Shown: positions 14,946-36,248 of the stretch, piece by piece
How positions within the stretch are numbered: position 1 is the first letter of the stretch
Layout of the letters: each line of letters opens with the position of its first letter
Source: a virus
Taxonomy: Duplodnaviria; Heunggongvirae; Uroviricota; Caudoviricetes
Reading direction: 5' to 3' (one strand)
Length of the DNA stretch: 36,248 nucleotides
IMG/VR virus record: IMGVR_UViG_2778261316_000009
Made by a program: the position numbers and the translations under genes
The notes under the pieces: model-generated
The model's input: only the letters and a program-made list of their open reading frames with translations
Told to the model about the DNA's origin: nothing
The model's database searches: none

Positions 14946-14991
14946 TTTCCCAACGATGGGCTTTGTATGTCTACCGTTGATAAGATTTAGG

Positions 14992-16544: not shown

Positions 16545-16549
16545 TTCTG

Positions 16550-16575: not shown

Positions 16576-16620
16576 TTCCAACACAGCACCCGCAAATATC
16601 GCGAGGTGAGAGATGACGAA

Positions 16621-16956: not shown

Positions 16957-16959
16957 TTT

Positions 16960-17969: not shown

Positions 17970-17995
17970 TCCGGATAAAGAACAGGAATATATTT

Positions 17996-18346
17996 ATGCC
18001 CCCTCGAACTCCAAAAGCCTGCCGCGTTCGCGGCTGCCGTAATACCACGACAGACCCGTCAGGCTACTGCGAAAGCCACAAAAGCGAAGGCTGGAAGCAA
18101 TACAAGCCAGGACAATCCCGTCATCAGCGCGGTTATGGTTCGAAGTGGGATGTTATCCGCGTGCGTGTGTTGAAGCGTGACAAAGGACTGTGCCAGTTGT
18201 GCCTGCGTGCCGGTGTGGTGCGTGAAGCGAAAACCGTTGATCACATCATCCCTAAAGCGCATGGCGGCTCTGATGCCGACAGTAATCTGCAGAGCCTGTG
18301 CTGGCCGTGTCATAAGGCGAAGACGGCCCGTGAACGGTTGAAGTGA
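17996..18346 (+). CDS. HNH endonuclease
   Basis: Cys/His motifs (CRVRGC, DHIIPKAHGG, NLQSLCWPCH); position just before the small terminase subunit. Confidence 0.8.
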   Translation: MPPRTPKACRVRGCRNTTTDPSGYCESHKSEGWKQYKPGQSRHQRGYGSKWDVIRVRVLKRDKGLCQLCLRAGVVREAKTVDHIIPKAHGGSDADSNLQSLCWPCHKAKTARERLK

Positions 18347-18367
18347 TAATAATTCTCAACTGCCTGA

Positions 18368-18431
18368 GGGGAGGGGCGGGTCAAATCCCTGCGGCCTGAC
18401 GTCTTCCGGACTGCCCGCCCCATCGTTTTTT
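18368..18431 (+). other. candidate cos-region structure or terminator
   Basis: GGGGCGGG ... CCCGCCCC inverted repeat with a 33-nt loop, then a T7 run, between HNH and terminase. Confidence 0.3.
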
Positions 18432-18471
18432 TATACCCGCGAAAAATGAAATTTAACCAGGAGTGCCGCAT

Positions 18472-18966
18472 ATGGCTGGAACGGCGGGGCGTTCCGGGCG
18501 TCGCCCCAAGCCAACGGCGCGCAAGGCGCTGGCCGGAAACCCCGGCAAGCGAGCCCTGAACAAAGATGAACCTGTTTTTACGCCCATCAAAGGTGTTGAG
18601 CCACCAGAGTGGTTCGCTGAAGAAGATCTCCCTCTCGCCACGATCATGTGGCAACTGACAACCAAAGAACTCTGCGGTCAGGGCCTGTTGTGCGTGACTG
18701 ACCTCGCGGTGCTTGAGCGGTGGTGCGTGGCCTATGAGTTCTGGCGACGTGCCGTGAAAAATATTGCCATACAGGGCAACACCATCACCGGTGCAATGGG
18801 CGGCAGGGTCAAAAATCCGGAGCTGACCGCCAAAAAAGAACAGGAGTCCGAGATGAGCAGCACGGGGGCAATGCTCGGACTCGACCCCAGCAGCCGCCAG
18901 CGTCTGATTGGCCTGGCGGGGCAGAAGAAAGCCACTAACCCGTTTCTGAAAATCATCGAGTCATGA
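18472..18966 (+). CDS. terminase small subunit (P27 family)
   Basis: [27 protein letters not shown] start is typical of P27-family TerS; AGGAG RBS. Confidence 0.8.
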
Positions 18967-20696: not shown

Positions 20697-20707
20697 CTGA
20701 GGTAATT

Positions 20708-20890
20708 ATGATCATGCTGATTCTCGCGCCTCTGGTGGGCGTGCTGGGTGCGCTTTTGCTGGCGTATGGTGCCTGGCTGATTTATCCCCCGGCGGGGTTT
20801 GTTGTTGCCGGGGCGTTGTGCCTGTTCTGGTCGTGGCTGGTGGCGCGATATCTCGACCGTACACAGTCGTCTGTCGGCGGAGGTAAATAG
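20708..20890 (+). CDS. small membrane protein (two predicted TM helices)
   Basis: 60-aa hydrophobic ORF with GAGG RBS; stop overlaps the portal GTG start. Confidence 0.45.
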
Positions 20891-22131
20891 TGTTCTTTTC
20901 GGGATTATTTCAACGAAAAAGTGACGCACCGGTGACCACGCCAGCAGAGCTGGCGGATGCTATCGGTTTGTCCTACGACACCTATACCGGAAAGCAGATC
21001 AGCAGCCAGCGGGCCATGCGACTGACGGCGGTTTTTTCCTGTGTCAGGGTGCTGGCGGAGTCGGTCGGGATGTTGCCCTGCAACCTGTATCACCTGAACG
21101 GCAGCCTGAAGCAGAGAGCCACTGGCGAACGTCTGCATAAGCTGATCTCCACGCATCCCAATGGCTATATGACGCCGCAGGAGTTCTGGGAGCTGGTGGT
21201 CACCTGTCTGTGCCTGCGGGGAAACTTTTACGCCTACAAAGTGAAAGCATTTGGCGAAGTGGCTGAACTGCTGCCCGTCGATCCCGGCTGTGTGGTACCG
21301 AAGCTTAACAGTAGCTGGGAGCCGGTCTATCAGGTCACATTCCCGGATGGCTCCACGGATGTACTGAGCCAGGAGGATATCTGGCATGTGCGCACGCTGA
21401 CGCTGGACGGACTGGTGGGGCTGAATCCCATCGCCTATGCCCGCGAGGCAATATCGCTGGCGGCAGCGACCGAAGAGCACGGGGCCAGACTGTTCAGCAA
21501 TGGCGCGGTGACGTCGGGTGTGTTGCGTACAGAGCAGACGCTGTCAGATCAGGCTTATGAGCGCCTGAAGAAAGATTTTGAGGAGCGTCACACCGGGCTT
21601 GGCAATGCTCACCGCCCGATGATCCTTGAGATGGGGCTGGACTGGAAGTCGATGGCGCTGAACGCCGAGGACAGCCAGTTCCTGGAAACCCGCAAGTTTC
21701 AGCTTGAAGAAATCTGTCGTCTGTTCCGGGTGCCGTTGCACATGGTGCAGAACACCGATCGCGCCACCTTCAACAATATCGAAGAGCTGGGGCTGGGATT
21801 TATCAACTATTCACTGGTGCCGTATCTGACCCGCATCGAACAGCGGATCAACACCGGACTGGTACGAAAAAGTAAGCAGGGCGTTTATTACGCCAAATTT
21901 AACGCCGGGGCGTTACTGCGCGGGGATATGAAGTCCCGTTTTGAAGCCTACGCCACCGGGATCAACTGGGGAATTTACTCTCCCAATGACTGCCGCGACC
22001 TGGAAGATATGAATCCGCGTCCCGGTGGTGATGTCTATCTCACACCGATGAACATGACCACGCAACCCTCCGATGGCAGTAAAGCCGGTAAGCAGAAGGA
22101 TAACGCCAATGCAGACGAAACAACGTCTTGA
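20890..22131 (+). CDS. portal protein (HK97 family)
   Basis: 413 aa, position after terminase; GTG start. Confidence 0.8.
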   Translation: MFFSGLFQRKSDAPVTTPAELADAIGLSYDTYTGKQISSQRAMRLTAVFSCVRVLAESVGMLPCNLYHLNGSLKQRATGERLHKLISTHPNGYMTPQEFWELVVTCLCLRGNFYAYKVKAFGEVAELLPVDPGCVVPKLNSSWEPVYQVTFPDGSTDVLSQEDIWHVRTLTLDGLVGLNPIAYAREAISLAAATEEHGARLFSNGAVTSGVLRTEQTLSDQAYERLKKDFEERHTGLGNAHRPMILEMGLDWKSMALNAEDSQFLETRKFQLEEICRLFRVPLHMVQNTDRATFNNIEELGLGFINYSLVPYLTRIEQRINTGLVRKSKQGVYYAKFNAGALLRGDMKSRFEAYATGINWGIYSPNDCRDLEDMNPRPGGDVYLTPMNMTTQPSDGSKAGKQKDNANADETTS

Positions 22132-22759
22132 TGTACCGCTGAGTCTGAAATCTGTCAGTGACTCCGGTGAGTTTGAAGGGTATGGCTCCGTCTTTGGTGT
22201 AAAGGACAGCCACGATGATGTGGTGATGTCCGGGGCATTTGCTGCTTCCCTGCGGGCGTGGAGTGACAGAAAAGCGTTACCTGCGCTGCTCTGGCAGCAC
22301 CGCATGGATGAGCCCATCGGAGTTTACACCGAAATGAAGGAAGACGATGTCGGGCTTTACGTCAGGGGGCGGTTGCTCATTGATGATGATCCCCTGGCAA
22401 AACGCGCACATGCACACATGAAGGCCGGTTCGTTAACCGGCCTTTCTATTGGGTACGTCCTGAAAGACTGGGAATACGACCGGACGAAAGAAGCCTTTTT
22501 GCTGAAAGAAATCGACCTCTGGGAAGTCAGTCTGGTGACGTTTCCGTCTAACGACGAGGCGCGGATCAGCGACGTCAAGAACGCGCTGGCCCGCGGGGAA
22601 ATCCCTGAACAGAAAAAAATCGAAAGAGTCCTGCGTGATGTCGGACTCTCCCGTACCCAGGCCAAAGCATTCATGGCCGGGGGCTATGGCGCACTGTCCC
22701 TGCGCGACGCTGAGGATGTGGGCTCTGCACTGAATGCACTGAAAAATCTGAACTTCTAA
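22109..22759 (+). CDS. prohead protease (HK97 family)
   Basis: EGYGSVFGVKDSHDDVVMSGAF motif typical of HK97 proteases; start at MQTKQRL. Confidence 0.8.
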   Translation: MQTKQRLDVPLSLKSVSDSGEFEGYGSVFGVKDSHDDVVMSGAFAASLRAWSDRKALPALLWQHRMDEPIGVYTEMKEDDVGLYVRGRLLIDDDPLAKRAHAHMKAGSLTGLSIGYVLKDWEYDRTKEAFLLKEIDLWEVSLVTFPSNDEARISDVKNALARGEIPEQKKIERVLRDVGLSRTQAKAFMAGGYGALSLRDAEDVGSALNALKNLNF

Positions 22760-22773
22760 TCAGGAGAAATACG

Positions 22774-23979
22774 ATGGCGGTTGATATTAAAGATGTGGAA
22801 CAGGTCGCGCAGGAGCTGCAGCAGAAGTTTGACGACTTCAAGGCAAAGAACGACAAGCGCGTGGATGCGATTGAGCAGGAAAAAGGCAAACTTGCCGGGC
22901 AGGTGGAAACCCTGAACGGGAAACTCAGCGAGCTGGAAAATCTCAAAAGCGATCTTGAAAAAGAGCTGCTTGAGCTGAAACGTCCGGCAGGTGGTGTGCA
23001 AAATAAACTGGCCACTGAGCATAAAGAAGCGTTTGTGGGCTTTCTGCGTAAAGGCCGTGAAGACGGTCTGCGCGATCTGGAGCGCAAGGCATTACAGGTG
23101 GGCACCGATGAAGACGGTGGCTATGCCGTGCCGGAAGCACTGGATCGCAACATTCTCACCCTGCTGAAAGATGAAGTGGTGATGCGCCAGGAAGCTACGG
23201 TGATCACTGTTGGCGGTTCCGACTACAAAAAACTGGTGAATCTGGGCGGTACGGCTTCCGGATGGGTGGGGGAAACGGATACGCGATCCCAGACTGCCAC
23301 CTCCAGACTGGAGCTGATTGAACCTCTCATGGGGGAAATTTACGGCAACCCGCAGGCTACCCAGAAAATGCTGGACGATGCCTTCTTCAACGTGGAGGCC
23401 TGGATCAACAGCGAGCTGGCAACCGAATTTGCCGAACAGGAAGAAATTGCCTTTACCTCAGGCGATGGCACCAAGAAGCCGAAAGGGTTCCTGGCGTATG
23501 AATCCACTGATGAAAACGACAAGGTCCGGGCGTTCGGCAAACTTCAGCATATTGTATCCGGCGAAGCGACCGCGGTGACCGCAGACGCCATTATCAAACT
23601 GATTTACACGCTGCGTAAGGCACACCGCACTGGCGCGAAGTTCATGATGAACAACAACAGCCTGTTTGCCATCCGTCTGCTGAAAGACACCGAGGGTAAC
23701 TATCTGTGGCGTCCGGGGCTGGAACTGGGGCAGCCGTCCTCTCTGGCGGGTTACGGTATCGCTGAAAACGAACAGATGCCGGATATCGCCGCTGATGCGA
23801 AAGCCATTGCATTTGGTAACTTCAAACGGGGTTACACCATCGTTGACCGTATCGGCACCCGCATTCTGCGTGACCCGTACACCAATAAACCGTTTGTCGG
23901 TTTTTATACCACCAAGCGCACCGGCGGGATGCTGGTCGATTCGCAGGCCATCAAACTGCTGAAGATTGCAGCGGCGTAA
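22774..23979 (+). CDS. major capsid protein (HK97 fold) with N-terminal coiled-coil delta domain
   Basis: 401 aa, AGGAGA RBS, coiled-coil N-terminus, position after the protease. Confidence 0.85.
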   Translation: MAVDIKDVEQVAQELQQKFDDFKAKNDKRVDAIEQEKGKLAGQVETLNGKLSELENLKSDLEKELLELKRPAGGVQNKLATEHKEAFVGFLRKGREDGLRDLERKALQVGTDEDGGYAVPEALDRNILTLLKDEVVMRQEATVITVGGSDYKKLVNLGGTASGWVGETDTRSQTATSRLELIEPLMGEIYGNPQATQKMLDDAFFNVEAWINSELATEFAEQEEIAFTSGDGTKKPKGFLAYESTDENDKVRAFGKLQHIVSGEATAVTADAIIKLIYTLRKAHRTGAKFMMNNNSLFAIRLLKDTEGNYLWRPGLELGQPSSLAGYGIAENEQMPDIAADAKAIAFGNFKRGYTIVDRIGTRILRDPYTNKPFVGFYTTKRTGGMLVDSQAIKLLKIAAA

Positions 23980-24005
23980 TCACTCAGGGGCGTGGAACCG
24001 CGCCC

Positions 24006-24028
24006 CCTGTTCTGACGGGTGAAGAATC
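24006..24028 (+). terminator. hairpin after the capsid gene (weak terminator)
   Basis: GGGGCG-loop-CGCCCC followed by TGTTCT. Confidence 0.35.
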
Positions 24029-24220
24029 ATGATCCTGAAACAAGATCTGAAATGGTCACCGGACGGTATGCGTGTTGAGGTCATTCGGGCCGGTGAGTAT
24101 GACGACGGGGCGCTTCCTGCCCGGGTGCAGGAGATTGCACTTCAGGCCGGGTTAGCAGAGCGCGGAACCAGTGCAAAAAGCAGTAAAGCGACAAAAGAGA
24201 AAAAAAGCCACGACCAGTAA
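24029..24220 (+). CDS. small hypothetical head-module protein
   Basis: 63-aa ORF with a Lys-rich C-terminus. Confidence 0.4.
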   Translation: MILKQDLKWSPDGMRVEVIRAGEYDDGALPARVQEIALQAGLAERGTSAKSSKATKEKKSHDQ

Positions 24221-24232
24221 AGAGGGCTGAGT

Positions 24233-24556
24233 ATGCTTCTGACAATGGAAGAGATTAAAGCCCAACTCAGGCTGGATGAGGATTTCGATGCTGATGACCG
24301 CCATCTGCAACTGCTGGCCTGTGCGGCGCAAAAGCGGACGGAAACGTATCTGAACCGGAAGCTCTATGCTCCGGATGAAACCATTCCGGACAGCGATCCG
24401 GACGGGCTGCACCTGCCGGATGATATTCGTCTGGGGATGCTGATGCTTATCAGCCATTTTTACGAAAACCGCTCGTCGGTTACGGAAGTGGAGAAACTCG
24501 ACATGCCGCAGAGTTTTGGCTGGCTTGTCGGCCCGTACAGGTACTTTCCGCAATGA
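24233..24556 (+). CDS. head-tail connector protein (gp6-like)
   Basis: MLLTMEEIKAQLRLDEDFDADD start typical of the gp6-like connector family. Confidence 0.65.
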   Translation: MLLTMEEIKAQLRLDEDFDADDRHLQLLACAAQKRTETYLNRKLYAPDETIPDSDPDGLHLPDDIRLGMLMLISHFYENRSSVTEVEKLDMPQSFGWLVGPYRYFPQ

Positions 24557-24963
24557 AAATTCGTCAGGCGCAGACCAGCGCAACCTACATTCTGCCGGAC
24601 CCCGGTGAACTGAATAAACGCGTCCTGATCCGCCAGCGGGTGGATATGCCCGCGGATAACTTTGGCGTGGATCCTCAATACCCGGTTGCGTTCCGGACAT
24701 GGGCGAAGGTTGTCCAGACCAGTGCCACCACCTGGCAGGAAACCGCGCAGACCGGGGACGCCATCACCCATTACATCACCATTCGTTACCGCCGGGGGAT
24801 CACCGCTGATTATGAGGTGGTCTGCGGTGACAGTGTGTACCGGGTGAAACGTCAGCGCGATCTGAACGGGGCGCGGCGCTTTCTGCTGCTGGAGTGTACG
24901 GAACTGGGCGAATTTACGCAGAGTCACGGAGGCAGCAATGGTGACTCCCTTTTTTCACGTTGA
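24553..24963 (+). CDS. head closure / head-tail adaptor protein
   Basis: size, position and ATGA coupling; pattern resembles SPP1 gp16-like head completion proteins. Confidence 0.6.
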   Translation: MKIRQAQTSATYILPDPGELNKRVLIRQRVDMPADNFGVDPQYPVAFRTWAKVVQTSATTWQETAQTGDAITHYITIRYRRGITADYEVVCGDSVYRVKRQRDLNGARRFLLLECTELGEFTQSHGGSNGDSLFSR

Positions 24964-25444
24964 TGTTCAGCAGCCCGCGGAGATGCGCTTTAACCGTGCC
25001 CGTGTCCGGCGGGCGTTTGTCACGATTGGGCAGCGTCATATGCGTGATGCCCGTCGGCTGGTGATGCGCCGTGCGCGGTCGGCACCGGGTGAAAACCCCG
25101 GTTATCAGACCGGACGCCTGGCTCGTTCGATTGGTTACATGGTGCCGATAGCCAGTAAAAAGCGAGCCGGTTTTATGACACGCATTGCCCCTAACCAGCG
25201 CAACGGGAAGGGGAACCGGATGATCTCTGGTGACTTCTATCCGGCGTTTCTGTTTTTTGGTGTCCGGGGAGGAGCAAAGCGTCGTCGCAGCCATCATCGT
25301 GGTGCATCCGGTGGCAGCGGCTGGCGACTGGCTCCACGTAATAACTTTATGGTGGAAACGCTTGAAAAGAACCGCAGCTGGACACGCTATTTTCTGGCGC
25401 GGGAATTACGTAAATCACTGAAGCCGGAGCGACGACACAGATGA
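24938..25444 (+). CDS. HK97 gp10-like tail completion protein
   Basis: basic 168-aa protein at the head-tail joining position; GGAGG RBS. Confidence 0.55.
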   Translation: MVTPFFHVDVQQPAEMRFNRARVRRAFVTIGQRHMRDARRLVMRRARSAPGENPGYQTGRLARSIGYMVPIASKKRAGFMTRIAPNQRNGKGNRMISGDFYPAFLFFGVRGGAKRRRSHHRGASGGSGWRLAPRNNFMVETLEKNRSWTRYFLARELRKSLKPERRHR

Positions 25445-26001
25445 AACTGACGCCTGTTATTGCTGCGCTGCGTGCCCGCTGCCCGTATTTTGAAAACCGG
25501 GTGGCAGGCGCGGCACAGTTCAAAAATCTGCCGGAGGTCGGAAAGCTGAGACTCCCGGCGGCGTATGTGGTACCGGGTGATGACTCTCCGGGAGAAAACA
25601 AAAGCCAGACCGACTACTGGCAGGAGCTGAAAGAGGGCTTCTCCGTGGTTGTCATACTGAGTAACGGGCGTGATGAGCGCGGTCAGTTTGCTTCGTATGA
25701 TGTGGTGGACGATGTCCGGCAGATGCTCTTTAAGGCCCTGCTGGGCTGGAACCCGGAAGCGTGCGGTAACCCGATTACCTATGACGGCGGCACGCTGCTG
25801 GATCTGAATCGTCATGAACTGATTTATCAGTTCGATTTTTCGGTCATCAGCGAGCTGACCGAAGACGATACCCGCCAGCAGGATGACCTGAACAGTCTGG
25901 ATGAACTGCGAACGCTGGCGATTGATGTTGATTATCTCGATCCCGGTAACGGGCCTGACGGCGATATCGAACATCACACCGAAATAACCCTTCCTTCCTG
26001 A
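25441..26001 (+). CDS. Mu gp37-like tail protein (DUF1834-like)
   Basis: position immediately upstream of the gp38-like and sheath genes; MKLTPVIAALRARC start resembles this family. Confidence 0.5.
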   Translation: MKLTPVIAALRARCPYFENRVAGAAQFKNLPEVGKLRLPAAYVVPGDDSPGENKSQTDYWQELKEGFSVVVILSNGRDERGQFASYDVVDDVRQMLFKALLGWNPEACGNPITYDGGTLLDLNRHELIYQFDFSVISELTEDDTRQQDDLNSLDELRTLAIDVDYLDPGNGPDGDIEHHTEITLPS

Positions 26002-26009
26002 GAATCTTC

Positions 26010-26180
26010 ATGTTTGTGAAACCTGTTAAAGGGCGGTCAGTGCCTGACCCTGCCCGCGGTGACCTTTTGCCCACCGAAGGGCGAAATGTTGATGAGAACA
26101 ACTACTGGCTGCGCCGTGAAGCAGCGGGTGATATCCGGCGCGTGAATAAAAAGGTGAACACCGATGACGATAAGCTTTAA
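26010..26180 (+). CDS. Mu gp38-like small protein (56 aa), absent from the ORF track
   Basis: MFVKPVKGRSVPDPARGDLLPTEGRNV ... NYWLRR matches the small protein conserved before Mu-type sheath genes; overlaps the sheath start. Confidence 0.55.
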   Translation: MFVKPVKGRSVPDPARGDLLPTEGRNVDENNYWLRREAAGDIRRVNKKVNTDDDKL

Positions 26181-27660
26181 CACCATTCCGTCGAATACGC
26201 TGGTTCCGCTGTTTTATGCGGAAATGGATAACCAGGCGGCGAATACTGCACAGGACAGCGGAGCATCGCTGCTGATTGGTCATGCCAATAACGGTGCAGA
26301 GATTGTTGCCAACAGTCTGGTGCTGATGCCGTCGGCAGACTATGCACGCCAGATTTGTGGTGCGGGAAGTCAGCTGGCGCGTATGGTCGAGGCTTATCGC
26401 CAGACCGACCCGTTTGGTGAGCTGTATGTGATTGCCGTTCCTGAATCCACGGGCGCGGCGGCAACGGTTACGCTGACGGTGACCGGGGCGGCAACCGAAA
26501 CCGGCACGGTTAATGTTTATGTGGGACGTACCCGCGTACAGGCACCGGTGACCAACGGCGATAACGTTGCGACGATTGCCAGCAGTATCAAAGATGCCAT
26601 CAATGCCGTTCCGGCCCTGCCGTTTACGGCTTCATCTTCGGCAGGCGTGGTCACACTGACCGCGCGTCATAAGGGGCTTTGCGGGAATGAAATTCCTGTC
26701 AGCCTCAATTACTACGGGTTTGGTGGGGGCGAAGTGCTGCCAGCGGGCGTACAGATTGCCGTGGCGACGGGTACCGCCGGAACGGGCGCTCCGGTTCTCA
26801 CCGGCGCGGTGGCTGCAATGGCGGATGAGCCGTTTGATTATATCGGCCTGCCGTTCAACGACACGGCCTCCGTTAACACGCTGGTGACCGAGATGAACGA
26901 TACCAGCGGTCGCTGGAGCTATGCGCGTCAGCTGTATGGTCATGTGTATACGGCAAAGATCGGCACGCTGTCAGAACTGGTGACCGCAGGTGACCAGTTT
27001 AACCAGCAGCACATTACCCTGGCGGGATACGAAAAAGACACTCAGACGCCAGCCGACGAGCTGGCGGCAAGCCGTACCGCCCGCGCAGCGGTGTTTATTC
27101 GCAACGATCCGGCACGTCCCACGCAGACCGGTGAGCTGGTGGGTATGCTGCCTGCGCCGAAGGGGAAACGGTTCACGATGACCGAGCAACAGACCCTGCT
27201 GTCTCATGGCGTGGCAACGGCGTATGTCGAAAGTGGGGTACTGCGCATTCAGCGTGATGTCACCACGTACAGGAAAAACGCTTACGGGGTTGCGGATAAC
27301 AGCTACCTCGACAGTGAGACGCTGCATACCAGCGCGTATGTACTGCGCAAACTGAAATCCGTCATTACCAGTAAGTACGGGCGTCACAAGCTTGCCAGTG
27401 ACGGTACCCGCTTTGGTCCCGGTCAGGCGATTGTCACCCCGGCGGTGATCAAAGGGGAACTGCTGGCAACCTACCGTCAGCTCGAGCGTGCGGGGATCGT
27501 GGAAAACTACGAACTGTTTAAGCAGTACCTGGTTGTGGAGCGTGATGCCAGCGATCCGAACCGCCTGAACACGCTGTTCCCGCCTGACTATGTTAACCAG
27601 TTGCGTGTCTTTGCCGTGGTTAACCAGTTCCGTCTTCAGTATTCAGAGGAGTCTGCATAA
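26164..27660 (+). CDS. contractile tail sheath protein (Mu gpL-like)
   Basis: 498 aa, followed by tube, chaperone and tape measure genes. Confidence 0.85.
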   Translation: MTISFNTIPSNTLVPLFYAEMDNQAANTAQDSGASLLIGHANNGAEIVANSLVLMPSADYARQICGAGSQLARMVEAYRQTDPFGELYVIAVPESTGAAATVTLTVTGAATETGTVNVYVGRTRVQAPVTNGDNVATIASSIKDAINAVPALPFTASSSAGVVTLTARHKGLCGNEIPVSLNYYGFGGGEVLPAGVQIAVATGTAGTGAPVLTGAVAAMADEPFDYIGLPFNDTASVNTLVTEMNDTSGRWSYARQLYGHVYTAKIGTLSELVTAGDQFNQQHITLAGYEKDTQTPADELAASRTARAAVFIRNDPARPTQTGELVGMLPAPKGKRFTMTEQQTLLSHGVATAYVESGVLRIQRDVTTYRKNAYGVADNSYLDSETLHTSAYVLRKLKSVITSKYGRHKLASDGTRFGPGQAIVTPAVIKGELLATYRQLERAGIVENYELFKQYLVVERDASDPNRLNTLFPPDYVNQLRVFAVVNQFRLQYSEESA

Positions 27661-28016
27661 TGGCCCGTATCGGGGGAACCTGTTATTTCAAAATTGACGG
27701 TCAGCAGCTATCGCTGACCGGCGGCATTGAGGTGCCCATGAACAAAACGGTTAACGATGACATCATCGGCCTGGACGGTTCAGTGGACCGCAAGGAAACT
27801 CACCGTGCACCTTATGTCAAAGGGACCTTCAAGGTGCCGAAGAATTTTCCGGTGAGCAAAATCACCTCGTCTGATGAGATGACCATCACTGCCGAGCTGG
27901 CGAACGGTCAGGTCTATGTACTGTCGTCTGCCTGGCTGCACGGCGAAGCGAACCATAATGCCGAAGAAGGCACGGTCGATCTTGAGTTCCACGGTGAAGA
28001 AGGGGATTACCAGTAA
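27660..28016 (+). CDS. tail tube protein (Mu gpM-like)
   Basis: 118 aa, TAATG coupling to the sheath gene. Confidence 0.8.
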   Translation: MARIGGTCYFKIDGQQLSLTGGIEVPMNKTVNDDIIGLDGSVDRKETHRAPYVKGTFKVPKNFPVSKITSSDEMTITAELANGQVYVLSSAWLHGEANHNAEEGTVDLEFHGEEGDYQ

Positions 28017-28285
28017 TGAAAGAGCTTGAGTTAAAGAAACCGATTACCGCTCATGGCGAGACACTCTCCGTACTGGAGTTTGATGAGCCCACCGGGAAAG
28101 ATGTCCGCGAGCTGGGATATCCCTACCAGATGAATCAGGATGAGTCCGTCAGACTTCTGGCGCATGTGGTATCGAAATACATCGTGCGGCTGGCGAAAGT
28201 GCCGCAAAGCTCTGTCGACCAGATGTCTCCGGCAGACCTGAATGCAGCGGCGTGGCTTGTGGCCGGTTTTTTCCTCCAGGCCTGA
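28016..28285 (+). CDS. tail assembly chaperone; a predicted -1 frameshift product extends to 28434
   Basis: slippery heptamer T_TTT_TTC at 28267-28273 in the zero frame; the -1 frame ORF runs to the tape measure start. Confidence 0.7.
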   Translation: MKELELKKPITAHGETLSVLEFDEPTGKDVRELGYPYQMNQDESVRLLAHVVSKYIVRLAKVPQSSVDQMSPADLNAAAWLVAGFFLQA

Positions 28286-28426
28286 CGGCTGAATACCTCA
28301 CTGATCGCTTCTTTGACTGCGCCAGTTACTGGCGCATTAATCCCTTCGAATTGCTGAATATGCCGATCAGTGAAATTCCCTTGCTGGTCAGTCAGGCAAA
28401 CAGGATAGAGCAGGAGAAACGCACAC

Positions 28427-30262
28427 ATGGCTGAATTTGAGCTTAAGGCGTTGATCACCGGTGTCGACAGGCTTTCTCCCGCGCTGTCGAAAATGCAAAA
28501 GAAAATCCGGGGATTTAAACGCCAGGCGGAAGAAGCGTCACAGGGTGGGCTGGCGCTTGGTGGCGGACTGGCAGCGGGTCTGACGCTTTCCCTGAAATCT
28601 TATGCCGATCAGGAAAACGCCGCCACCGGGCTGAAAGTCGCCATGATGGATGCGAACGGCGAGGTTGGAAAGAGCTTTCAGGACATCAATAAACTGGCTA
28701 TTGGCCTGGGTAACCAGCTACCCGGTACAACGGCTGATTTCCAGAACATGATGCAGATGCTGGTGCGTCAGGGGATCCCGGCAGAAAACATTCTTGGTGG
28801 TGTGGGTAAAGCGACAGCTTATCTTGCGGTACAACTGAAAAAAACACCGGAAGCGGCTGCTGAGTTTGCTGCAAAGATGCAGGATGCTACCGGAACGGCG
28901 TCAGAAGACATGATGGGGCTGTTCGACACTATCCAGAAGGCGTTTTATCTGGGCGTTGACGATACCAACATGTTGTCCTTCTTCACTAAAACCAGTTCTG
29001 TTCTGAAGATGGTGAACAAGGACGGTCTTCAGGCTGCACAGAGCCTTGCCCCCATCAGCGTCATGATGGATCAGATGGGGATGAACGGGGAGTCGGCAGG
29101 TAATGCCCTGCGAAAAGTTATCCAGTCCGGATTAAGCGTTAAGAAAATCAGGGACGTCAATAAAGTCATGGCCCGCCAGAGACTCGGGGTACAGCTCGAT
29201 TTTACTGACGGCAAAGGAAGTTTTGGCGGTCTTGATAACATGTTCAGGCAACTGGCAAAGCTGCGAAAACTGACCGACGTTAAGCGAACAGGTGTACTTA
29301 AGGCAATATTTGGTGATGATGCCGAAACCCTTCAGGTGGTCAATGCACTAATCGATAAAGGAAAGGATGGCTACGATCAGATCCAGCAGAAGATGAATAA
29401 ACAGGCCAGCCTGAATAAACGTGTTCAGGCACAGCTTGGTACGCTGTCCAACCTGTGGGAGGCAATGACGGGGACCGCAACTAACGGCCTTGCGGCTATT
29501 GGCGGCGCATTTTCTGGTGACGCCAAAAATATCACGCAATGGCTGGGGGAGTTGGGGGAAAAATTCACGAAGTTTGCGGATGAAAATCCCCGGGTTATTC
29601 GCGGCGTCGTCGGGCTTGCTGCCGGTCTTGCGATTCTGAAACTGGGATTGATGGGCGTGGGCAGTGCCATCAGTATCGTCAGCAGGATCATGTCGATGAC
29701 GCCGATTGGCATGATTGCGACGGCGATTGCCCTGGCTGCGGGATTAATTATCACTAACTGGGATGTTGTTGGACCTTATTTCAAGAAGCTCTGGGAAACC
29801 ATTGGTCCTTATTTTGAGGCTGGCTGGGAACTTCTGAAGAAGGTTTTTGCCTGGTCGCCGCTGGGGATGGTAATCAATAACTGGGGACCGGTTGTTAAGT
29901 GGTTTCAGGATATGTGGGACAAGCTGAAGCCAATTATTGAGTGGTTTACCGACAGTTCCGGTGACACGGTCGATGCCATTAACTCTGCGCAGTGGGGCGC
30001 GGGTGCTTATGATGCTTATGGGACGGGAATACCGGCGCGGGGATACACACCTTATCCGGCGGTAGATCCGGCTCAGTCAAACAACGCCTCCGATGCTACA
30101 GGCCCGAATCCCTTCATGATTAACAAAGCTTCTGCGCCAAAAGTTGACGGTGAGATCAAGGTCTCTTTTGTGAATTTGCCTCCGGGTATGCGGGTTATGG
30201 AAACGCGATCCAGCGGTTTTGATATAAATCACGATGTTGGCTATACGCATATTGGCAGATGA
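28427..30262 (+). CDS. tail tape measure protein
   Basis: 611 aa, Ala/Gly-rich with TM-like segments, downstream of the chaperone. Confidence 0.85.
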   Translation: MAEFELKALITGVDRLSPALSKMQKKIRGFKRQAEEASQGGLALGGGLAAGLTLSLKSYADQENAATGLKVAMMDANGEVGKSFQDINKLAIGLGNQLPGTTADFQNMMQMLVRQGIPAENILGGVGKATAYLAVQLKKTPEAAAEFAAKMQDATGTASEDMMGLFDTIQKAFYLGVDDTNMLSFFTKTSSVLKMVNKDGLQAAQSLAPISVMMDQMGMNGESAGNALRKVIQSGLSVKKIRDVNKVMARQRLGVQLDFTDGKGSFGGLDNMFRQLAKLRKLTDVKRTGVLKAIFGDDAETLQVVNALIDKGKDGYDQIQQKMNKQASLNKRVQAQLGTLSNLWEAMTGTATNGLAAIGGAFSGDAKNITQWLGELGEKFTKFADENPRVIRGVVGLAAGLAILKLGLMGVGSAISIVSRIMSMTPIGMIATAIALAAGLIITNWDVVGPYFKKLWETIGPYFEAGWELLKKVFAWSPLGMVINNWGPVVKWFQDMWDKLKPIIEWFTDSSGDTVDAINSAQWGAGAYDAYGTGIPARGYTPYPAVDPAQSNNASDATGPNPFMINKASAPKVDGEIKVSFVNLPPGMRVMETRSSGFDINHDVGYTHIGR

Positions 30263-30278
30263 CGGAACCAGATATAAT
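30252..30278 (+). promoter_or_regulatory. candidate promoter for the tail-module moron
   Basis: TTGGCA (30252-30257), 15-bp spacer, consensus TATAAT (30273-30278). Confidence 0.4.
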
Positions 30279-30314
30279 TTGTCTTTAAGTTTGTTATCAA
30301 CTGAAGGGAAATCT

Positions 30315-30692
30315 ATGGGTCTGTTACATGCCATTATAGGTAATGCCGGTGAAATTAATGCATCAGATGCACAACAGGAATTAGGGGCTGTTTTAGGTGA
30401 GGGAGAAAATGTCGAACTTGCCTATAAACTCATTCGTGACCAAATTATTCTGACTAACAGAAGGTTAATTTTTATTGATAAGCAGGGTGTCACAGGGAAA
30501 AAAGTAGAGTATCGTTCGATTCCTTATAAATCTGTGACAAACTTTTCTATTGAAACCGCCGGGCATCTTGATCTTGATGCTGAAATGAAGATATGGATTT
30601 CTGGTATTGCAGAACCGATAAAAAAACAGTTCAGTAAAGGAGCAAACATTTATAAATTGCAGGCTCATCTGGCTCAAAAAATAGCAGGGTAA
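30315..30692 (+). CDS. moron: small bacterial PH-domain-like protein
   Basis: AT-rich 125-aa ORF with AAGGGA RBS and its own terminator, inserted between tape measure and gp43-like genes; LIFIDKQGVTGKKVEYRSIPYKSVTNFSIE resembles bacterial PH domains, a weak call. Confidence 0.55.
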   Translation: MGLLHAIIGNAGEINASDAQQELGAVLGEGENVELAYKLIRDQIILTNRRLIFIDKQGVTGKKVEYRSIPYKSVTNFSIETAGHLDLDAEMKIWISGIAEPIKKQFSKGANIYKLQAHLAQKIAG

Positions 30693-30715
30693 ACCTTACA
30701 TTAATTTATGTCTTT

Positions 30716-30741
30716 CATGCCCACTTCGGTGGGCTTTTTTA
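30716..30741 (+). terminator. rho-independent terminator after the moron
   Basis: GCCCAC-TTCG-GTGGGC followed by T6. Confidence 0.7.
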
Positions 30742-30755
30742 TATCCGGAGTTTAT

Positions 30756-32210
30756 ATGACGTGGAAAGACAGGCTTCAGGACGCGTCATTTCGCGGTGTG
30801 CCGTTTAAGGTTGAAGAAGAAAGTGCGGGAACAGGTCGCCGTGTGGAAACACACGAATATCCGAACCGCGACAAACCCTATACCGAAGATCTGGGAAAAG
30901 TCACTTTCCGCCCGTCCATCACGGCTTATGTGGTGGGCGATGACTGCTTTGACCAGCGCGATCGCCTGATTGACGCGCTGAATAAACCCGGTCCCGGCAC
31001 GCTTGTCCACCCGACTTACGGTGAGCTGAAAGTCTGTGTTGACGGAGAGGTTCGGGTCAGCACATCGAAAAGTGAAGGGCGTATTGTCCGCTTTGACCTG
31101 AAGTTTGTCGAAGCGGGAGAACTCTCTTACCCCACATCAGGTGCGGCGACGGCGCAGACGCTGATGTCATCCTGTTCTGCACTGGATGACTGCATCAGTG
31201 ACAGCTTCAGCGGTTTCAGTATCGATGGTGTGGCGGATTTCGTGCAGAACGACGTTATCGGTAATGCCAGCATAATGCTGGGGTATGTTTCTGATGCGAT
31301 GAAAGTGGTGGATTCTGCCGTATCGGATGCCGCCAGGCTGTTGCAGGGGGATATCTCGGTACTTCTGCCGCCGCCATCGTCAGGCAAAAATTTCGTTGAG
31401 CAGGTGCAGAAAATGTGGCGTACCGGGAAACGCCTTTATGGTAACGCCAGCGACCTGGTCACCATGATCAAAACGCTTTCCGGTGTCAGCCTCGGCAGCG
31501 ATCTGCAACCGCGCGGCGTCTGGAAAACGGACAGTAAAACCACCGCCACGGCGACGCAGCAGCGTAACGTGGTTGCCAGCACCCTTCGTGCGACCGCAAT
31601 CAGCGAAGCGGCGTATGCCGTCACCCGATTGCCTGCGCCAACAACTTCCGCGGTGATGCAGAATGCCGCAGTGGGGCAGTCAACAACTTCCGCGGTGATG
31701 CAGAATGCCGCAGTGGGGCAGTCAACAACTTCCGCGGTGATGCAGAATGCCGCAGTGGGGCAGTCAACAACTTCCGCGGTGATGCAGAATGCCGCAGTGG
31801 GGCAGTCAACAACTTCCGCGCAGAGCACCGGCTGGCCTTCCGTCACGCATCCGGCACTGAACAATGCACCGGCGGTGAAAAACACGGTTGACCTGCCAAC
31901 GTGGGAAGAACTGACTGACATTCGCGACACACTGAATACGGCAATTGATAAGGAGTTGTCCCGTACAACCAGTGATGCGCTGTTTCTGGCGCTGCGCCGG
32001 GTGAAAGCAGATCTGAATGCGGATATCAACACGCGCCTTGAACAGTCTGCTCGGATCATTCAGCGCACGCCGGATGAGGTCTTACCCGCGCTGGTGCTGG
32101 CGGCGACCTGGTTTGATAACGCGGCGCGTGACGCGGACATTATCCGGCGTAATGCCATTACGCATCCCGGCTTTGTGCCGGTGATCCCTCTGAAGGTGCC
32201 AGTGCAATGA
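30756..32210 (+). CDS. Mu N / gp43-like DNA circularisation protein with an internal tandem repeat
   Basis: MTWKDRLQDASFRGVPFKVEEE start typical of the DNA circularisation N-terminal domain; CCGGAG RBS. Confidence 0.75.
   Translation: MTWKDRLQDASFRGVPFKVEEESAGTGRRVETHEYPNRDKPYTEDLGKVTFRPSITAYVVGDDCFDQRDRLIDALNKPGPGTLVHPTYGELKVCVDGEVRVSTSKSEGRIVRFDLKFVEAGELSYPTSGAATAQTLMSSCSALDDCISDSFSGFSIDGVADFVQNDVIGNASIMLGYVSDAMKVVDSAVSDAARLLQGDISVLLPPPSSGKNFVEQVQKMWRTGKRLYGNASDLVTMIKTLSGVSLGSDLQPRGVWKTDSKTTATATQQRNVVASTLRATAISEAAYAVTRLPAPTTSAVMQNAAVGQSTTSAVMQNAAVGQSTTSAVMQNAAVGQSTTSAVMQNAAVGQSTTSAQSTGWPSVTHPALNNAPAVKNTVDLPTWEELTDIRDTLNTAIDKELSRTTSDALFLALRRVKADLNADINTRLEQSARIIQRTPDEVLPALVLAATWFDNAARDADIIRRNAITHPGFVPVIPLKVPVQ
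31641..31820 (+). repeat. perfect 42-bp tandem repeat, four copies plus a partial, in frame (TTSAVMQNAAVGQS)
   Basis: identical units starting at 31641, 31683, 31725 and 31767. Confidence 0.9.
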
Positions 32211-33286
32211 ACGATAACGTCACGCTACGGGTAAATGGCCGGGAGTGGAATGGCTGGACATCGGTGCGCATCGGTGCCGGTATTGAACGGCTGGCGCGGG
32301 ATTTCAGCGTGGAGATCACCCGCCAGTGGCCGGGAGATGAGGGTATCACCACGCTTCAGCCGCGCATTAAAAATGGTTCAAAAGTGGAAGTGCTGATTGG
32401 TGATGAGCTGGTGATCACCGGCTGGGTGGAGGCGACCCCCGTTCGTTACGATGCCCGTTCGGTCAGCACCGGTATTGCCGGACGTAGTCTGACGGCTGAC
32501 CTGATTGACTGTGCAGCCGAACCGACACAGTTTAACGGACGCTCGCTGGTGCAGATTGCGCAGGCGCTTGCTGCGCCTTTCGGCATTGAGGTGGTGAACA
32601 GCGATGCGCCGTCGGGTGTTATTCCGGATGTCCAGCCTGATCACGGTGAAACGGTGATCGAGGTGATCAACAAAATACTCGGTCAGCAGCAGGCGCTGGC
32701 TTATGACGACCCGCACGGCAGGCTGGTGATTGGTGGTATTGGCTCAACGCGGGCACATACCGCGCTGGTACTTGGGGAAAACATCCTTTCCTGTGATACG
32801 GAGAAGAGTATCCGGGAGCGGTTTTCAGTTTACCAGGTGGCGGGGCAGCGTGCCGGAAACGACGATGATTTCGGTGAGGCCACCACCACCGCGCTGCGGG
32901 CCCGCACAGAGGACGCATTTATTGCCCGTTACCGTCCGATGTATATCAGGCAGACAGGGCAGGCTACGGGGGCAGGCTGTATTGCCCGTGCGGACTTTGA
33001 AGCCCGACAACGGGCGGCGCGGACGGATGAAACCACCTATGTGGTGCAGGGCTGGCGACAGGGTAACGGTACGCTGTGGCAGCCCAACCAGCGGGTGATT
33101 GTCTTTGATCCGGTCTGTGGTTTCGACAATACCGAACTGCTTGTTTCGGAAGTCACGTTTACTCAGGACCAGAACGGCACCCTGACGGAAATCCGTGTCG
33201 GCCCACCTGATGCTTATCTGCCTGAACCCGAAGCCCCCGGCGCGCGGAAAAAGAAAAAAGCCAGAGTACAGGAGGAGCCGTTCTGA
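32207..33286 (+). CDS. Mu P / gp44-like baseplate hub protein
   Basis: 359 aa, ATGA coupling, position after the gp43-like gene. Confidence 0.7.
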   Translation: MNDNVTLRVNGREWNGWTSVRIGAGIERLARDFSVEITRQWPGDEGITTLQPRIKNGSKVEVLIGDELVITGWVEATPVRYDARSVSTGIAGRSLTADLIDCAAEPTQFNGRSLVQIAQALAAPFGIEVVNSDAPSGVIPDVQPDHGETVIEVINKILGQQQALAYDDPHGRLVIGGIGSTRAHTALVLGENILSCDTEKSIRERFSVYQVAGQRAGNDDDFGEATTTALRARTEDAFIARYRPMYIRQTGQATGAGCIARADFEARQRAARTDETTYVVQGWRQGNGTLWQPNQRVIVFDPVCGFDNTELLVSEVTFTQDQNGTLTEIRVGPPDAYLPEPEAPGARKKKKARVQEEPF

Positions 33287-33834
33287 TGAGGACGATTGAA
33301 GCCATGCAGCGACAACTCCTCGGCCTGATTGGGCGGGCCGTGGTGAAAAGCATCAGTGCCGCCACGAAATGTCAGACCGTGGATGTGTCCCTGATTGCCG
33401 GTGAACCCAAAGCCGGGGTTGAACATCTTGAACCCTACGGTTTTACCGCAAGGGCAAACAGCGGTGCGGAAGCGGTGGTGTTGTTTCCGGATGGCGACCG
33501 TTCTCATGCGGTGGTTGTTACGGTGTCGGACCGTCGCTACCGCCTGAAAGGGCTGCAAACGGGGGAGGTGGCTGTCTATGACGATCAGGGGCAGTCCGTG
33601 ACGCTGACCAGGGAGGGGATCGTGGTGGACGGTGCAGGTAAAACGATCACGTTTCGCAATGCGCCCAGAGCACGCTTTGAAATGGACCTGGAAGTGACAG
33701 GACAGGTGAAAGACCTGTGCGACTCCGGCGGCACCACCATGTCAGCGATGCGGCTTGCCTATAACGGGCATCGTCACAGAGAGAACGGTCAGGGAAGTAA
33801 CACCGACAAACCTGATAAAGCGATGGAGGCATGA
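33286..33834 (+). CDS. baseplate assembly protein V / spike (Mu gp45-like)
   Basis: LEPYGFTARANSGAEAVVLFPDGDRSHAVVVTVSDRRYR matches the phage baseplate V family pattern. Confidence 0.75.
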   Translation: MRTIEAMQRQLLGLIGRAVVKSISAATKCQTVDVSLIAGEPKAGVEHLEPYGFTARANSGAEAVVLFPDGDRSHAVVVTVSDRRYRLKGLQTGEVAVYDDQGQSVTLTREGIVVDGAGKTITFRNAPRARFEMDLEVTGQVKDLCDSGGTTMSAMRLAYNGHRHRENGQGSNTDKPDKAMEA

Positions 33835-34259
33835 TGGAACTGTGGCTGACGGTGAACGGTAAACGCACCTGCGCCAGCGCACCGCTGGATCCGCTGCCCC
33901 GCGCCGTGGTGATTTCCCTGTTCACCTGGCGGCGGGCGGAGCCTGATGACAACGCCGACGTCCCGATGGGATGGTGGGGGGATACCTGGCCTGCGGTACA
34001 GAATGACCGTTACGGCTCCCGACTGTGGCTGCTTCAGCGCAGCAAACTGACCAATCAGCTGGTGCAGACGGTAAGGGGGTATATCCGCGAATGCCTGCAA
34101 TGGATGATTGATGACGGCGTGGTGTCCCGTATTGATCTGGATATCCGCCGCACCGGGATTAATGAGCTTGGTAACAGTATCACTCTCTGGCGTCGTGACG
34201 GACCGGTAATGATTTCTTTTGATGATCTGTGGAGTGCGATAACGCATGGCGGACAGTGA
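33831..34259 (+). CDS. Mu gp46-like baseplate protein
   Basis: 142 aa, position and ATGA coupling. Confidence 0.65.
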   Translation: MMELWLTVNGKRTCASAPLDPLPRAVVISLFTWRRAEPDDNADVPMGWWGDTWPAVQNDRYGSRLWLLQRSKLTNQLVQTVRGYIRECLQWMIDDGVVSRIDLDIRRTGINELGNSITLWRRDGPVMISFDDLWSAITHGGQ

Positions 34260-35304
34260 ATTTCAGCGCCCGACGCTGGCAGAAAATATCAGTATGCTCC
34301 GTAACGATTTATTCGCCAGGCTGGACGTCAGCGACACGCTCCGGCGCATGGATGAAGACGTGCGGGCAAAGGTGTATGCGGCGGCGCTGCATACGGTTTA
34401 CGGGTACATCGATTATCTGGCAATGAATATGCTGCCTGACCTGTGCGATGAGTCCTGGCTGGCGCGACATGCTGCGATGAAACGGTGTCCGCGCAAGGGG
34501 GCCACGGCTGCCAGCGGGTATATGCGCTGGGAAGGTGTCAGCGATGGCCTGAAGGTGACTGCCGGGAGCGTGATTCAGCGCGATGACCTGGTTCAGTACA
34601 CGGCAACTGCCGATGCAACCAGCTCCGGTGGTGTCCTGCGTGTGCCGATCACTTGCTCAACTACAGGCGCGGTCGGTAACGCTGACGACGGTACGGCATT
34701 AATCCTGGTCACGCCGGTGAATGGTCTGCCGTCTTCCGGTGTTGCAGATACCCTGACTGGCGGATTCGATACTGAAGATCTGGAAACGTGGCGCGCCCGC
34801 GTCATTGAGCGGTATTACTGGACGCCGCAGGGCGGGGCTGACGGGGACTATGTCGTCTGGGCTAAAGAAGTGCCCGGCATTACCCGCGCATGGACATACC
34901 GTCACTGGATGGGAACGGGAACTGTCGGTGTGATGATTGCCAGCAGTGACCTGATTAATCCCATTCCGGAAGAATCAACGGAAACGGCGGCAAGACAACA
35001 TATCGTGCCACTGGCCCCGGTGGCAGGCTCTGATTTGTATGTGTTCAGGCCGGTGGCACATACGGTGGATTTTCATATCCGCGTGACGCCGGACACACCG
35101 GAAATACGGGCTGCCATCACCGCGGAGTTGCGTTCGTTCCTGCTGCGTGATGGTTATCCGCAGGGAGAACTGAAGGTATCGCGTATCAGTGAGGCGATTT
35201 CCGGTGCGAACGGGGAATACAGCCATCAGTTGTTTGCACCGGCAGACAATATCTCCATTGCAAAAAATGAACTGGCGGTACTGGGGACGATTTCATGGAC
35301 GTGA
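34246..35304 (+). CDS. baseplate J-like protein (Mu gp47-like)
   Basis: 352 aa, position. Confidence 0.75.
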
Positions 35305-35879
35305 CAAACGATGATTACATCCGTCTGTTGTCGGCACTGTTGCCCCCCGGTCCGGCGTGGTCAGCCAGCGATCCGGCGATTGCCGGTGCGGCACCGTCAT
35401 TAACCCGCGTTCATCAGCGTGCGGATGCCCTGATGCGGGAGCTGGATCCGCGCACCACCACCGAACTGATAAATCGCTGGGAGCGTCTGTGCGGCCTGCC
35501 GGATGAATGTATTCCCGCAGGGACACAGACCCTTCGCCAGCGTCAGCAACGACTGGATGCGAAGGTTAACCTGGCGGGCGGCATCAATGAGGATTTTTAC
35601 CTTGCACAGCTTGCTGCCCTGGGCAGACCAGACGCCACCATCACGCGATACGACAAAAGCACGTTCACCTGCTCATCGGCCTGTACTGACGCGGTGAATG
35701 CGCCGGAATGGCGGTATTACTGGCAGGTCAACATGCCAGCCGCCACCAACACCACCTGGATGACATGTGGCGATCCCTGTGATTCCGCACTGCGTATCTG
35801 GGGCGACACCGTTGTCGAGTGTGTGCTTAACAAACTCTGCCCGTCGCATACCTACGTAATTTTTAAATATCCGGAGTAA
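35295..35879 (+). CDS. ymfQ: DUF2313 tail protein (Mu gp48 / YmfQ-like)
   Basis: 194 aa, Cys-containing C-terminal region; position between the baseplate J and tail fibre genes as in e14. Confidence 0.65.
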
Positions 35880-35882
35880 TCC

Positions 35883-36248
35883 ATGCATCGTATAGACACG
35901 AAAACCGCGCAGAAGGATAAGTTCGGCGCGGGTAAGAACGGTTTTACCCGTGGTAATCCCCAGACTGGTACGCCTGCCACCGATCTGGATGATGACTACT
36001 TTGACATGTTGCAGGAGGAGCTTTGCAGCGTTGTGGAGGCATCCGGTGCCAGCCTGGAGAAGGGGCGGCATGACCAGTTGCTTACCGCACTTCGCGCACT
36101 GCTGTTAAGCCGCAATAATCCGTTTGGTGATATCAAATCGGACGGCACGGTACCAACGGCTCTCGAAAACCTTGGTTTGGGAGAAGGTTCGGCATTACCC
36201 GTTGGTGTGCCTGTTCCGTGGCCTTCCGCCACTCCGCCAACAGGCTGG
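35883..36248 (+). CDS. tail fibre protein, N-terminal part (truncated by the window end)
   Basis: [47 protein letters not shown] is the conserved N-terminus of enterobacterial phage side tail fibres; no stop reached. Confidence 0.75.

Follow-up and report, generated by a model that had tools for sequence, protein, structure and literature searches.

A PH-domain gene between the tape measure and gpN genes of an SfV-like prophage: probable moron cargo at a polymorphic tail-module slot

Why should an AT-rich gene for a single-domain bacterial PH protein lie between the tape measure and baseplate hub genes of a phage tail module, and does it serve the virion or the lysogen? This question is raised by the IMG/VR virus record IMGVR_UViG_2778261316_000009, a stretch of 36,248 nucleotides of Caudoviricetes DNA that is referred to below as the window. 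Here, the tail tape measure gene (28427-30262; PF10145, E=1e-26, and PHROG tape measure families) is separated from a gpN/gp43-like DNA circularisation (baseplate hub) gene on its 3' side (30756-32210; PF07157, DNA_circ_N, E=3e-34; PHROG 184) by a 493-nt intergenic stretch that contains a single open reading frame (ORF) at 30315-30692, all on the plus strand. This ORF encodes a 125-aa PHb1 protein (PF08000, bPH_1), as seen from Pfam, PDB and Foldseek matches, and constitutes the cargo of the cassette. Its GC content of 0.38, and that of 0.37 for the 493-nt cassette (0.37-0.39 across the insert), deviates from the tape measure gene (0.52) and the gpN gene (0.57). We consider it likely that the insert is a classical moron cassette, that is, optional cargo at a recombination hotspot that benefits the lysogen rather than virion assembly.

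The start codon at 30315 is backed by the homologues, all of which begin with MGL..., and a Shine-Dalgarno-like AAGGGA (30304-30309) is located 5 nt before this ATG. A longer reading, a 152-aa ORF at 30234-30692 that starts inside the tape measure gene, was dropped because every homologue starts at the equivalent of the 30315 ATG and a separate ribosome-binding site (RBS) is found there. The AT-rich 125-aa ORF, a TATAAT, the AAGGGA and a GCCCAC/GTGGGC hairpin had all been listed in the initial annotation of this DNA, and each of them was recovered at coordinates that were exact or a few bases off.

Is this gene a constituent of the tail module proper? The tape measure/gpN junction occurs in 1,095 of 5,426 complete E. 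coli genomes, in just 28 of which the insert is covered. A query with the insert alone returned 24 intact copies and four split by IS1, all in the same slot and 99-100% identical, while no further copy of the PH gene was detectable in the E. coli genomes at the DNA level. The gene is hence absent from about 97% of related tail modules and lacks the conserved presence of a Mu-type tail gene. Tail modules without the insert are otherwise about 96-97% identical, and the flanks of the slot are 96% identical to those of the Shigella and E. coli serotype-converting phages SfV, SfII and SfI. Since these isolated, infectious phages are devoid of the PH cassette, the gene is not needed for tail assembly. 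As had been proposed at the outset, the Mu-type tail module thus contains an accessory insert of foreign composition: rather than being present in all related tail modules and required for their assembly, the gene is missing from most near-identical ones, including those of SfV, SfII and SfI. The IS1 insertion in the PH gene of four genomes (e.g. NZ_CP075062.1) is located at about window position 30404; these split copies indicate that the gene is also dispensable for prophage maintenance. In E. coli 730V1 and three other genomes, the tape measure gene is 120 nt longer (1,956 instead of 1,836 nt) and followed by an identical cassette, which is therefore common to tail-length variants.

A gene placed between the tape measure and hub genes, and in the same slot in E. 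coli and Edwardsiella phages, could conceivably encode a tail-assembly or virion accessory factor of this tail lineage that acts, for example, together with the tape measure protein or gpN. The approximately 97% of near-identical modules that do without it, infectious phages among them, render this scarcely credible. In other alleles, unrelated envelope proteins or nothing at all take its place and, outside the lineage, the gene is found in lysogeny modules and non-phage chromosomes. In addition, the C5 rings formed by close homologues (PMC2817789) would mismatch the 3- or 6-fold symmetry of phage tails.

What else may occupy the slot was assessed by typing 60 of the 1,103 matching records, drawn at even intervals. 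The slot was empty in 28 records, harboured a 170-aa ORF as in phage SKA5 in 13, a gene for an OB-fold protein in five, the PH cassette in two and a 225-aa ORF in one; ten records featured a different tape measure type, and one was a spurious 38-nt match. Six slot states can accordingly be distinguished: empty, PH gene, signal-peptide protein, opposite-strand OB-fold protein, lipoprotein, and the tight 24-nt junction of SfIV-type modules, from which the hairpin is absent. The alternative cargoes are likewise AT-rich (GC 0.31-0.42) and encode envelope proteins of a type usual in lysogenic conversion or exclusion. The SKA5-type product carries a signal peptide, the 225-aa product a lipoprotein signal, and the OB-fold product (PF12869, tRNA_anti-like) an N-terminal membrane anchor; the gene for the latter is antisense to the late operon. 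In this OB-fold allele, a bidirectional-looking hairpin directly follows the tape measure stop codon. PADLOC gave no match for any of the four other slot cargoes.

The borders of the slot are sharply conserved on the right. The segment ATATCCGGAGTTTAT, which includes the gpN RBS, plus the gpN ATG (30741-30758) is identical in the PH, empty, SKA5-type and 225-aa alleles, and in all forward-oriented alleles a differing hairpin stem is joined to the common TTTTTTATATCCGGAGTTTAT-ATG of gpN. On the left, alignment with the empty allele places the breakpoint at about 30223, in the last ~40 nt of the tape measure gene. Judging from the aligned alleles, the tape measure-gpN junction is a multi-allele cargo hotspot with at least five alternative occupants, the PH segment among them. 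No description of this slot of SfV-like phages was found in the literature searched.

Does the insert also possess the transcription signals of a moron? A terminator scan, with which the predicted fold agrees, located an intrinsic terminator (GCCCAC-UUCG-GUGGGC followed by U6) at 30719-30740 on the plus strand, consisting of a 6-bp stem (5 GC) with a UUCG loop at 30719-30734 and a T6 run at 30735-30740. As the terminator-like sites in the region number 12 versus a shuffle expectation of 9.0 +/- 3.0, i.e. no excess, the case for this site rests on its conservation: the 26-nt hairpin and T-run are 100% identical in Edwardsiella cassettes, whose ORF shares only 79% DNA identity. The 60-nt empty junction of QEC11-421 and at least 13 other genomes has this very hairpin, and a close variant in the SfII empty junction was annotated by the depositors as a rho-independent terminator. 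Because of these empty junctions, the terminator is not private to the PH gene. Either earlier cargo was deleted and left the empty sites as scars, or the PH gene was inserted upstream of a resident hairpin. The 60-nt empty junction (QEC11-421, locus L006, 277-336; SfII, locus L001, 1964-2024) is AT-rich (GC 0.35) and looks composite, with the first ~22 nt resembling the start of the SKA5-type cassette and the hairpin being that of the PH cassette; it may thus represent such a scar. An Rfam search of 30000-31000 gave only sub-threshold matches, on the terminator. The candidate small RNA among them, the Hfq-binding isrB (30677-30739, spanning the ORF end and the terminator; 24.2 bits versus a gathering threshold of 35, E=0.06), was rejected as most likely a chance match driven by the hairpin.

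On the other side of the gene, a candidate sigma-70 promoter spans 30252-30280 of the plus strand. Besides the TATAAT at 30273-30278, the plus strand of the window has just one other, and the sole good -35 element, TTGGCA at 30252-30257, is situated inside the final tape measure codons at a spacing of 15 nt. In a scan with a rough position weight matrix that penalises 15-nt spacing, TTGGCA-N15-TATAAT ranks 4th among 72,434 window positions, and a second register with TAATTT at 30275-30280 (TTGGCA-N17-TAATTT) ranks 8th. A sigma-70 promoter of the PH gene is hence a plausible candidate at the sequence level and nothing more. Of the features by which morons are recognised (PMC3594210), absence from collinear relatives, deviant composition and a downstream terminator are all observed, and the promoter is represented by hexamers that score high in the weight matrix in both registers and are missed by a consensus scan. 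The independent promoter and terminator that the initial annotation had assigned to the insert are therefore borne out as far as the presence of hexamers and hairpin is concerned; the exclusive ownership of the hairpin had to be given up, as it is shared with empty junctions.

Edwardsiella prophages and the plaque-forming Edwardsiella phage EPP-1 (PMC11043334) contain the same cassette in the same slot, in a tail module whose tape measure protein and gpN are 32% and 63% identical, respectively, to those encoded in the window. Upstream of the Edwardsiella PH gene, a non-coding remnant of an E. coli-type tape measure 3' end is found that includes the TTGGCA. In this non-coding context, the 17-nt register is kept as TTGGCA-N17-TAACCT, with a TAnnnT core, and the RBS is conserved as GGAAGGGG. 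Since the remnant 3' end, RBS, ORF and hairpin are shared despite the divergent flanking genes, the mobile unit comprises the tail end of the tape measure gene, the promoter-like region, the PH gene and the terminator. Comparison of the E. coli and Edwardsiella PH genes gave a synonymous divergence (dS) above 2, i.e. saturated, at a non-synonymous divergence (dN) of 0.05-0.07. With the resulting dN/dS of 0.02-0.03 at saturated synonymous sites, the gene is, by this measure, clearly in use and under strong purifying selection in phages.

These values bear on whether the insert is simply decaying, as would be the case for AT-rich junk from illegitimate recombination, a functionless hitch-hiker with an ORF out of use. 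Its rarity (28/1,095 junction genomes) and the four IS1-interrupted copies might be taken as signs of such a fate. The low dN/dS largely refutes it and, furthermore, 24 E. coli genomes and 11 IMG/VR contigs still carry an intact ORF, and the RBS, the terminator and all 46 family-invariant residues are conserved. We therefore regard a functionless insert as highly improbable.

The encoded protein is a canonical member of PF08000 (bPH_1/PHb1, formerly DUF1696), which it matches with 163.2 bits against a cut-off of 27.7 (E=3e-48) over profile positions 2-121 of 122, and is a single-domain protein of 125 aa. It also matches PHROG 7115, for which no function is assigned. The Shewanella structures 3DCX and 3HSA are hit at E ~1e-39 with roughly 60% identity. 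PHb1 proteins of the 3HSA type consist of a single PH-like domain and form pentameric, dome-shaped rings in which neighbouring subunits enclose a conserved pocket (PMC2817789). An AlphaFold2 (AF2) monomer model of the window protein (predicted local distance difference test score, pLDDT, 80.7) features seven core strands and a C-terminal helix, and the best Foldseek matches are again 3DCX and 3HSA at template modelling (TM) scores of 0.79-0.87, followed by eukaryotic PH domains; against viral structures, Foldseek gave only weak PH-like matches of no clear meaning. Nine of ten pocket or structural residues described in PMC2817789 are kept (I40, R41, T47, R50, V59, T60, T81, D86 and D88), with leucine replacing F85. 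The resemblance to a bacterial PH domain, on which the initial annotation had remarked, thus finds agreement from profile, crystal structures and predicted fold.

Sequence conservation within this family is pronounced. Homologues in Photobacterium, Endozoicomonas, Clostridia, Bacilli, Streptomyces, cyanobacteria and Chloroflexi share 57-66% identity with the window protein, which retains all 46 of the 125 alignment columns that are invariant among 14 sequences from Gammaproteobacteria and Bacillota. Its nearest non-phage homologue, at 72% identity, is an ordinary chromosomal gene of Edaphovirga. Because the family is so conserved across phyla, the phage carries an essentially unmodified cellular gene, the low GC content of which would fit a low-GC donor. 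The protein has no hydrophobic segment or signal peptide, with a maximal 19-residue Kyte-Doolittle mean of 0.58, compared with 1.75-2.16 for the three co-allelic envelope cargoes, and PADLOC (PADLOC-DB v2) returned no match for it at E<=1. A membrane-associated exclusion or defence factor, as had been guessed initially, is accordingly left unsupported, yet not refuted; in view of these properties of a highly conserved, cellular-type protein, which are not those of a fast-evolving factor for phage recognition, the guess is speculation that the protein features partly contradict. A protein so conserved, and devoid of membrane features, is unlikely to act by membrane exclusion in the manner of gp15 or Sie and would rather bind a conserved cellular ligand or partner.

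In which genomic context do other temperate phages carry such genes? The answer provides the strongest hint at the role of the protein. In Lactococcus phage ul36, the order is CI-like repressor, ORF195, ORF355, PH gene and integrase; in a 186-like Vibrio prophage (10N.286.45.B12_PE001), it is CI, PH gene, SIR2-like gene and integrase; and an IMG/VR contig displays a helix-turn-helix (HTH) repressor, a Schlafen/AlbA_2-HATPase protein, the PH gene, a 178-aa ORF and an integrase. Two genes on either side were surveyed at 42 non-redundant viral loci, yielding 150 neighbour proteins, most frequently with HTH_3 (15), phage integrase (12), ImmA-type Peptidase_M78 (8) and S24 peptidase (7) domains. 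Moreover, among 47 non-SfV IMG/VR contigs of at least 20 kb, 22 have bPH_1 no further than 2.5 kb from a contig end, while uniform placement would predict 6.8. The bPH_1 genes of temperate phages from several phyla thus occupy sites typical of accessory genes expressed from the prophage. A plasmid search gave sporadic, uninformative occurrences.

In two of these unrelated prophages, bPH_1 adjoins a large defence-like gene within the repressor-integrase operon, namely a SIR2-like gene (PDC-S65; locus L115, 3150-5437) in Vibrio and a Schlafen/AlbA_2-HATPase_c_4 gene at locus L029, 713-2692. The Vibrio SIR2-like neighbour matches the PADLOC model Aga_SIR2 (3.5e-64), and the Vibrio bPH_1 homologue itself has no PADLOC match. 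The PH and SIR2-like or Schlafen genes could form a two-gene unit, or their adjacency could be coincidental.

How might the cassette then operate? In the lysogen, transcription from a modest sigma-70 promoter placed across the stop codon of the tape measure gene would yield a monocistronic PH transcript, which would end at the hairpin and thus leave the baseplate genes silent. The window also encodes a Q-type antiterminator (14091-14885, plus strand; PF03589, E=1.9e-53), and in SfV-like phages the Q-modified polymerase passes terminators in the late operon (PMC3851460). A strong terminator directly before the baseplate genes would be tolerable, as Q antitermination lets late transcription through; during lytic growth, Q-modified RNA polymerase from the late promoter would ignore the hairpin, and the PH gene would be expressed as a passenger, too. 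Its product may form a cytoplasmic ring of identical subunits, bind a ligand or partner that is conserved in cells, and benefit the lysogen, most probably against other phages or envelope stress, rather than virion assembly. Placement in lysogeny modules elsewhere, and the envelope-protein alleles of the slot, one of them antisense to the late operon, favour a function exerted in the lysogen, most plausibly one that protects it against other phages or envelope stress. The B. subtilis family member YozO belongs to the sigma-W envelope-stress regulon (PMC2817789).

Several observations weigh against this proposal. A consensus scan called no promoter upstream of the PH gene, as the TATAAT is separated by 15 nt from the sole good -35; this spacer is non-optimal for the perfect -10, which moreover reads TATAAC in Edwardsiella, and promoter-like hexamers arise readily in AT-rich DNA. 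The hairpin, being found at junctions without insert, need not have come with the PH gene. The protein itself carries no membrane or secretion signal, matches neither PADLOC nor NCBIfam models, and its 57-66% identity across phyla is atypical of a phage arms-race factor. Around 80 cellular loci, no neighbour is conserved beyond genus-level synteny, and literature searches on the PF08000/DUF1696 family returned nothing functional after Xu et al. 2010. Finally, the PH gene is oriented with the late operon, and expression as a late passenger only stays compatible with this arrangement.

Under the latter assumption, the gene would have no promoter dedicated to it and would be made only from the Q-antiterminated late transcript to help the phage, for instance through a ring that sequesters a host signal or counters a host defence. 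The co-orientation, the presence of Q, the non-optimal promoter spacing and the perfect -10 not kept in Edwardsiella would suit this, as would the retention of the PH gene by plaque-forming EPP-1 (PMC11043334); the inter-protomer pocket (PMC2817789) might, by analogy, recall phage 'sponge' proteins. In other temperate phages, however, the gene resides in the repressor/integrase operon and not in lytic modules, one co-allelic cargo is antisense to the late operon, and TTGGCA-N17-TAnnnT is kept in the non-coding context of Edwardsiella. In addition, a conserved terminator directly 3' of the gene makes sense chiefly for a prophage-expressed unit. Exclusive late expression is thus an unlikely, if still serious, alternative to a moron expressed in the lysogen.

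Seen as a moron, the cassette can be compared with the original example of the kind, gene 15 of HK97 (Juhala et al. 2000; Cumby et al. 2012; reviewed in PMC3594210). Both are small genes of deviant composition that lie next to the tape measure gene in a lambdoid tail operon, originate from a cellular family and are missing in collinear relatives; a terminator signal accompanies each of them, as does a promoter in the case of gene 15 and a candidate promoter in that of the PH gene. In contrast, gp15 resides in the inner membrane, where it blocks the entry of DNA, and has diverged from cellular YebO proteins, whereas the PH protein has no membrane segment, is predicted to be soluble and is nearly unchanged from its cellular family. 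It likewise differs from the other membrane exclusion proteins, P22 SieA, Cor and lactococcal Sie, in that transmembrane segment, signal peptide and lipobox are all lacking. In its design, the element is an ordinary moron of the HK97 gp15 kind.

The structurally characterised PHb1 proteins 3HSA and 3DCX (Xu et al. 2010, PMC2817789) share family, length, about 60% identity and predicted PH fold with the window protein; they are encoded by chromosomal Shewanella genes, whereas the window copy is phage cargo, the ring of which is deduced from homologues. The lysogeny-module bPH_1 proteins of Lactococcus phage ul36 (ORF124), Microbacterium phage Min1 (ORF77) and the Vibrio prophage 10N.286.45.B12_PE001 are members of the same family and, too, non-essential cargo of temperate phages. 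Yet, they are encoded between repressor and integrase and are only 36-45% identical to the window protein, while the window copy is found in a late tail operon and needs a terminator and Q read-through. Variable cargo and defence hotspots of temperate phages and satellites such as P2 and P4 were reportedly described by Rousset et al. in 2022. Like these, the slot is a fixed junction of conserved genes with alternative, unrelated AT-rich cargo in either orientation; unlike in the P2 and P4 hotspots, none of the five cargoes of the SfV slot matches a PADLOC model, so that the label of defence is unproven.

The prophage as a whole is SfV-like, with lambdoid regulation, an HK97-type head and only the tail of Mu type. 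The Mu-type context that the initial annotation had ascribed to the locus therefore holds for the tail and does not extend to the phage, which is of the lambdoid SfV type with Q. Besides Q, the window encodes lysis genes and a DNA methylase between Q and the holin. Its late region (16978-36248) is 97-98% identical to the prophage of E. coli G3/10, which is annotated with HK97-type head genes and a Mu-type contractile tail, and the window prophage is a mosaic relative of the latter. Window positions 1-16977 are without similarity to the G3/10 prophage, which indicates mosaicism between the early and the late module; GC is low (0.34-0.45) in the initial ~2.4 kb, which open with a DUF2713 protein. 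The DNA methylase gene (PF01555) is located at 15492-16544, between Q (14091-14885) and the holin gene (16525-16956). In lambdoid phages, the Q-holin interval often houses morons or toxin genes.

Further side observations concern the tail genes next to the slot. Upstream of the tape measure gene, a tail assembly chaperone ORF (28016-28285; PF10109) is overlapped by an ORF in another frame (28252-28434) that reaches the tape measure start. Such a layout is typical of a programmed frameshift that yields a G/GT-like chaperone pair. Downstream, the gpN-like gene contains a perfect 42-bp tandem repeat in 4.3 copies (31639-31820) that encodes TSAVMQNAAVGQST repeats; the protein has 484 aa here and 442 aa in G3/10, and the repeat copy number hence differs between strains.

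A more far-reaching idea, which we put forward tentatively and with considerable doubt, is that PHb1 rings represent an unrecognised class of prophage-carried lysogen-protection factors that were captured repeatedly by temperate phages of several phyla and are expressed from lysogeny operons or morons, with the tape measure protein-gpN junction as an undescribed hotspot for such cargo. These factors would act through the conserved pocket between subunits, which might, for instance, take up a nucleotide signal or serve to cap a conserved complex of the cell, and they would sometimes be found beside SIR2-like or Schlafen-like effectors.

Taken together, PF08000, an orphan family with solved structures since 2010, is now tied to a recurrent phage context, comprising lysogeny operons in phages of Firmicutes, Actinobacteria and Vibrio as well as a tail moron in enterobacterial phages. 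The polymorphic slot in tail modules of about 96% identity provides a ready isogenic series for the function of tail-module morons. As E. coli shows no other copy of the PH gene at the DNA level, lysogens with and without the cassette would constitute a clean genetic test of PF08000 function.

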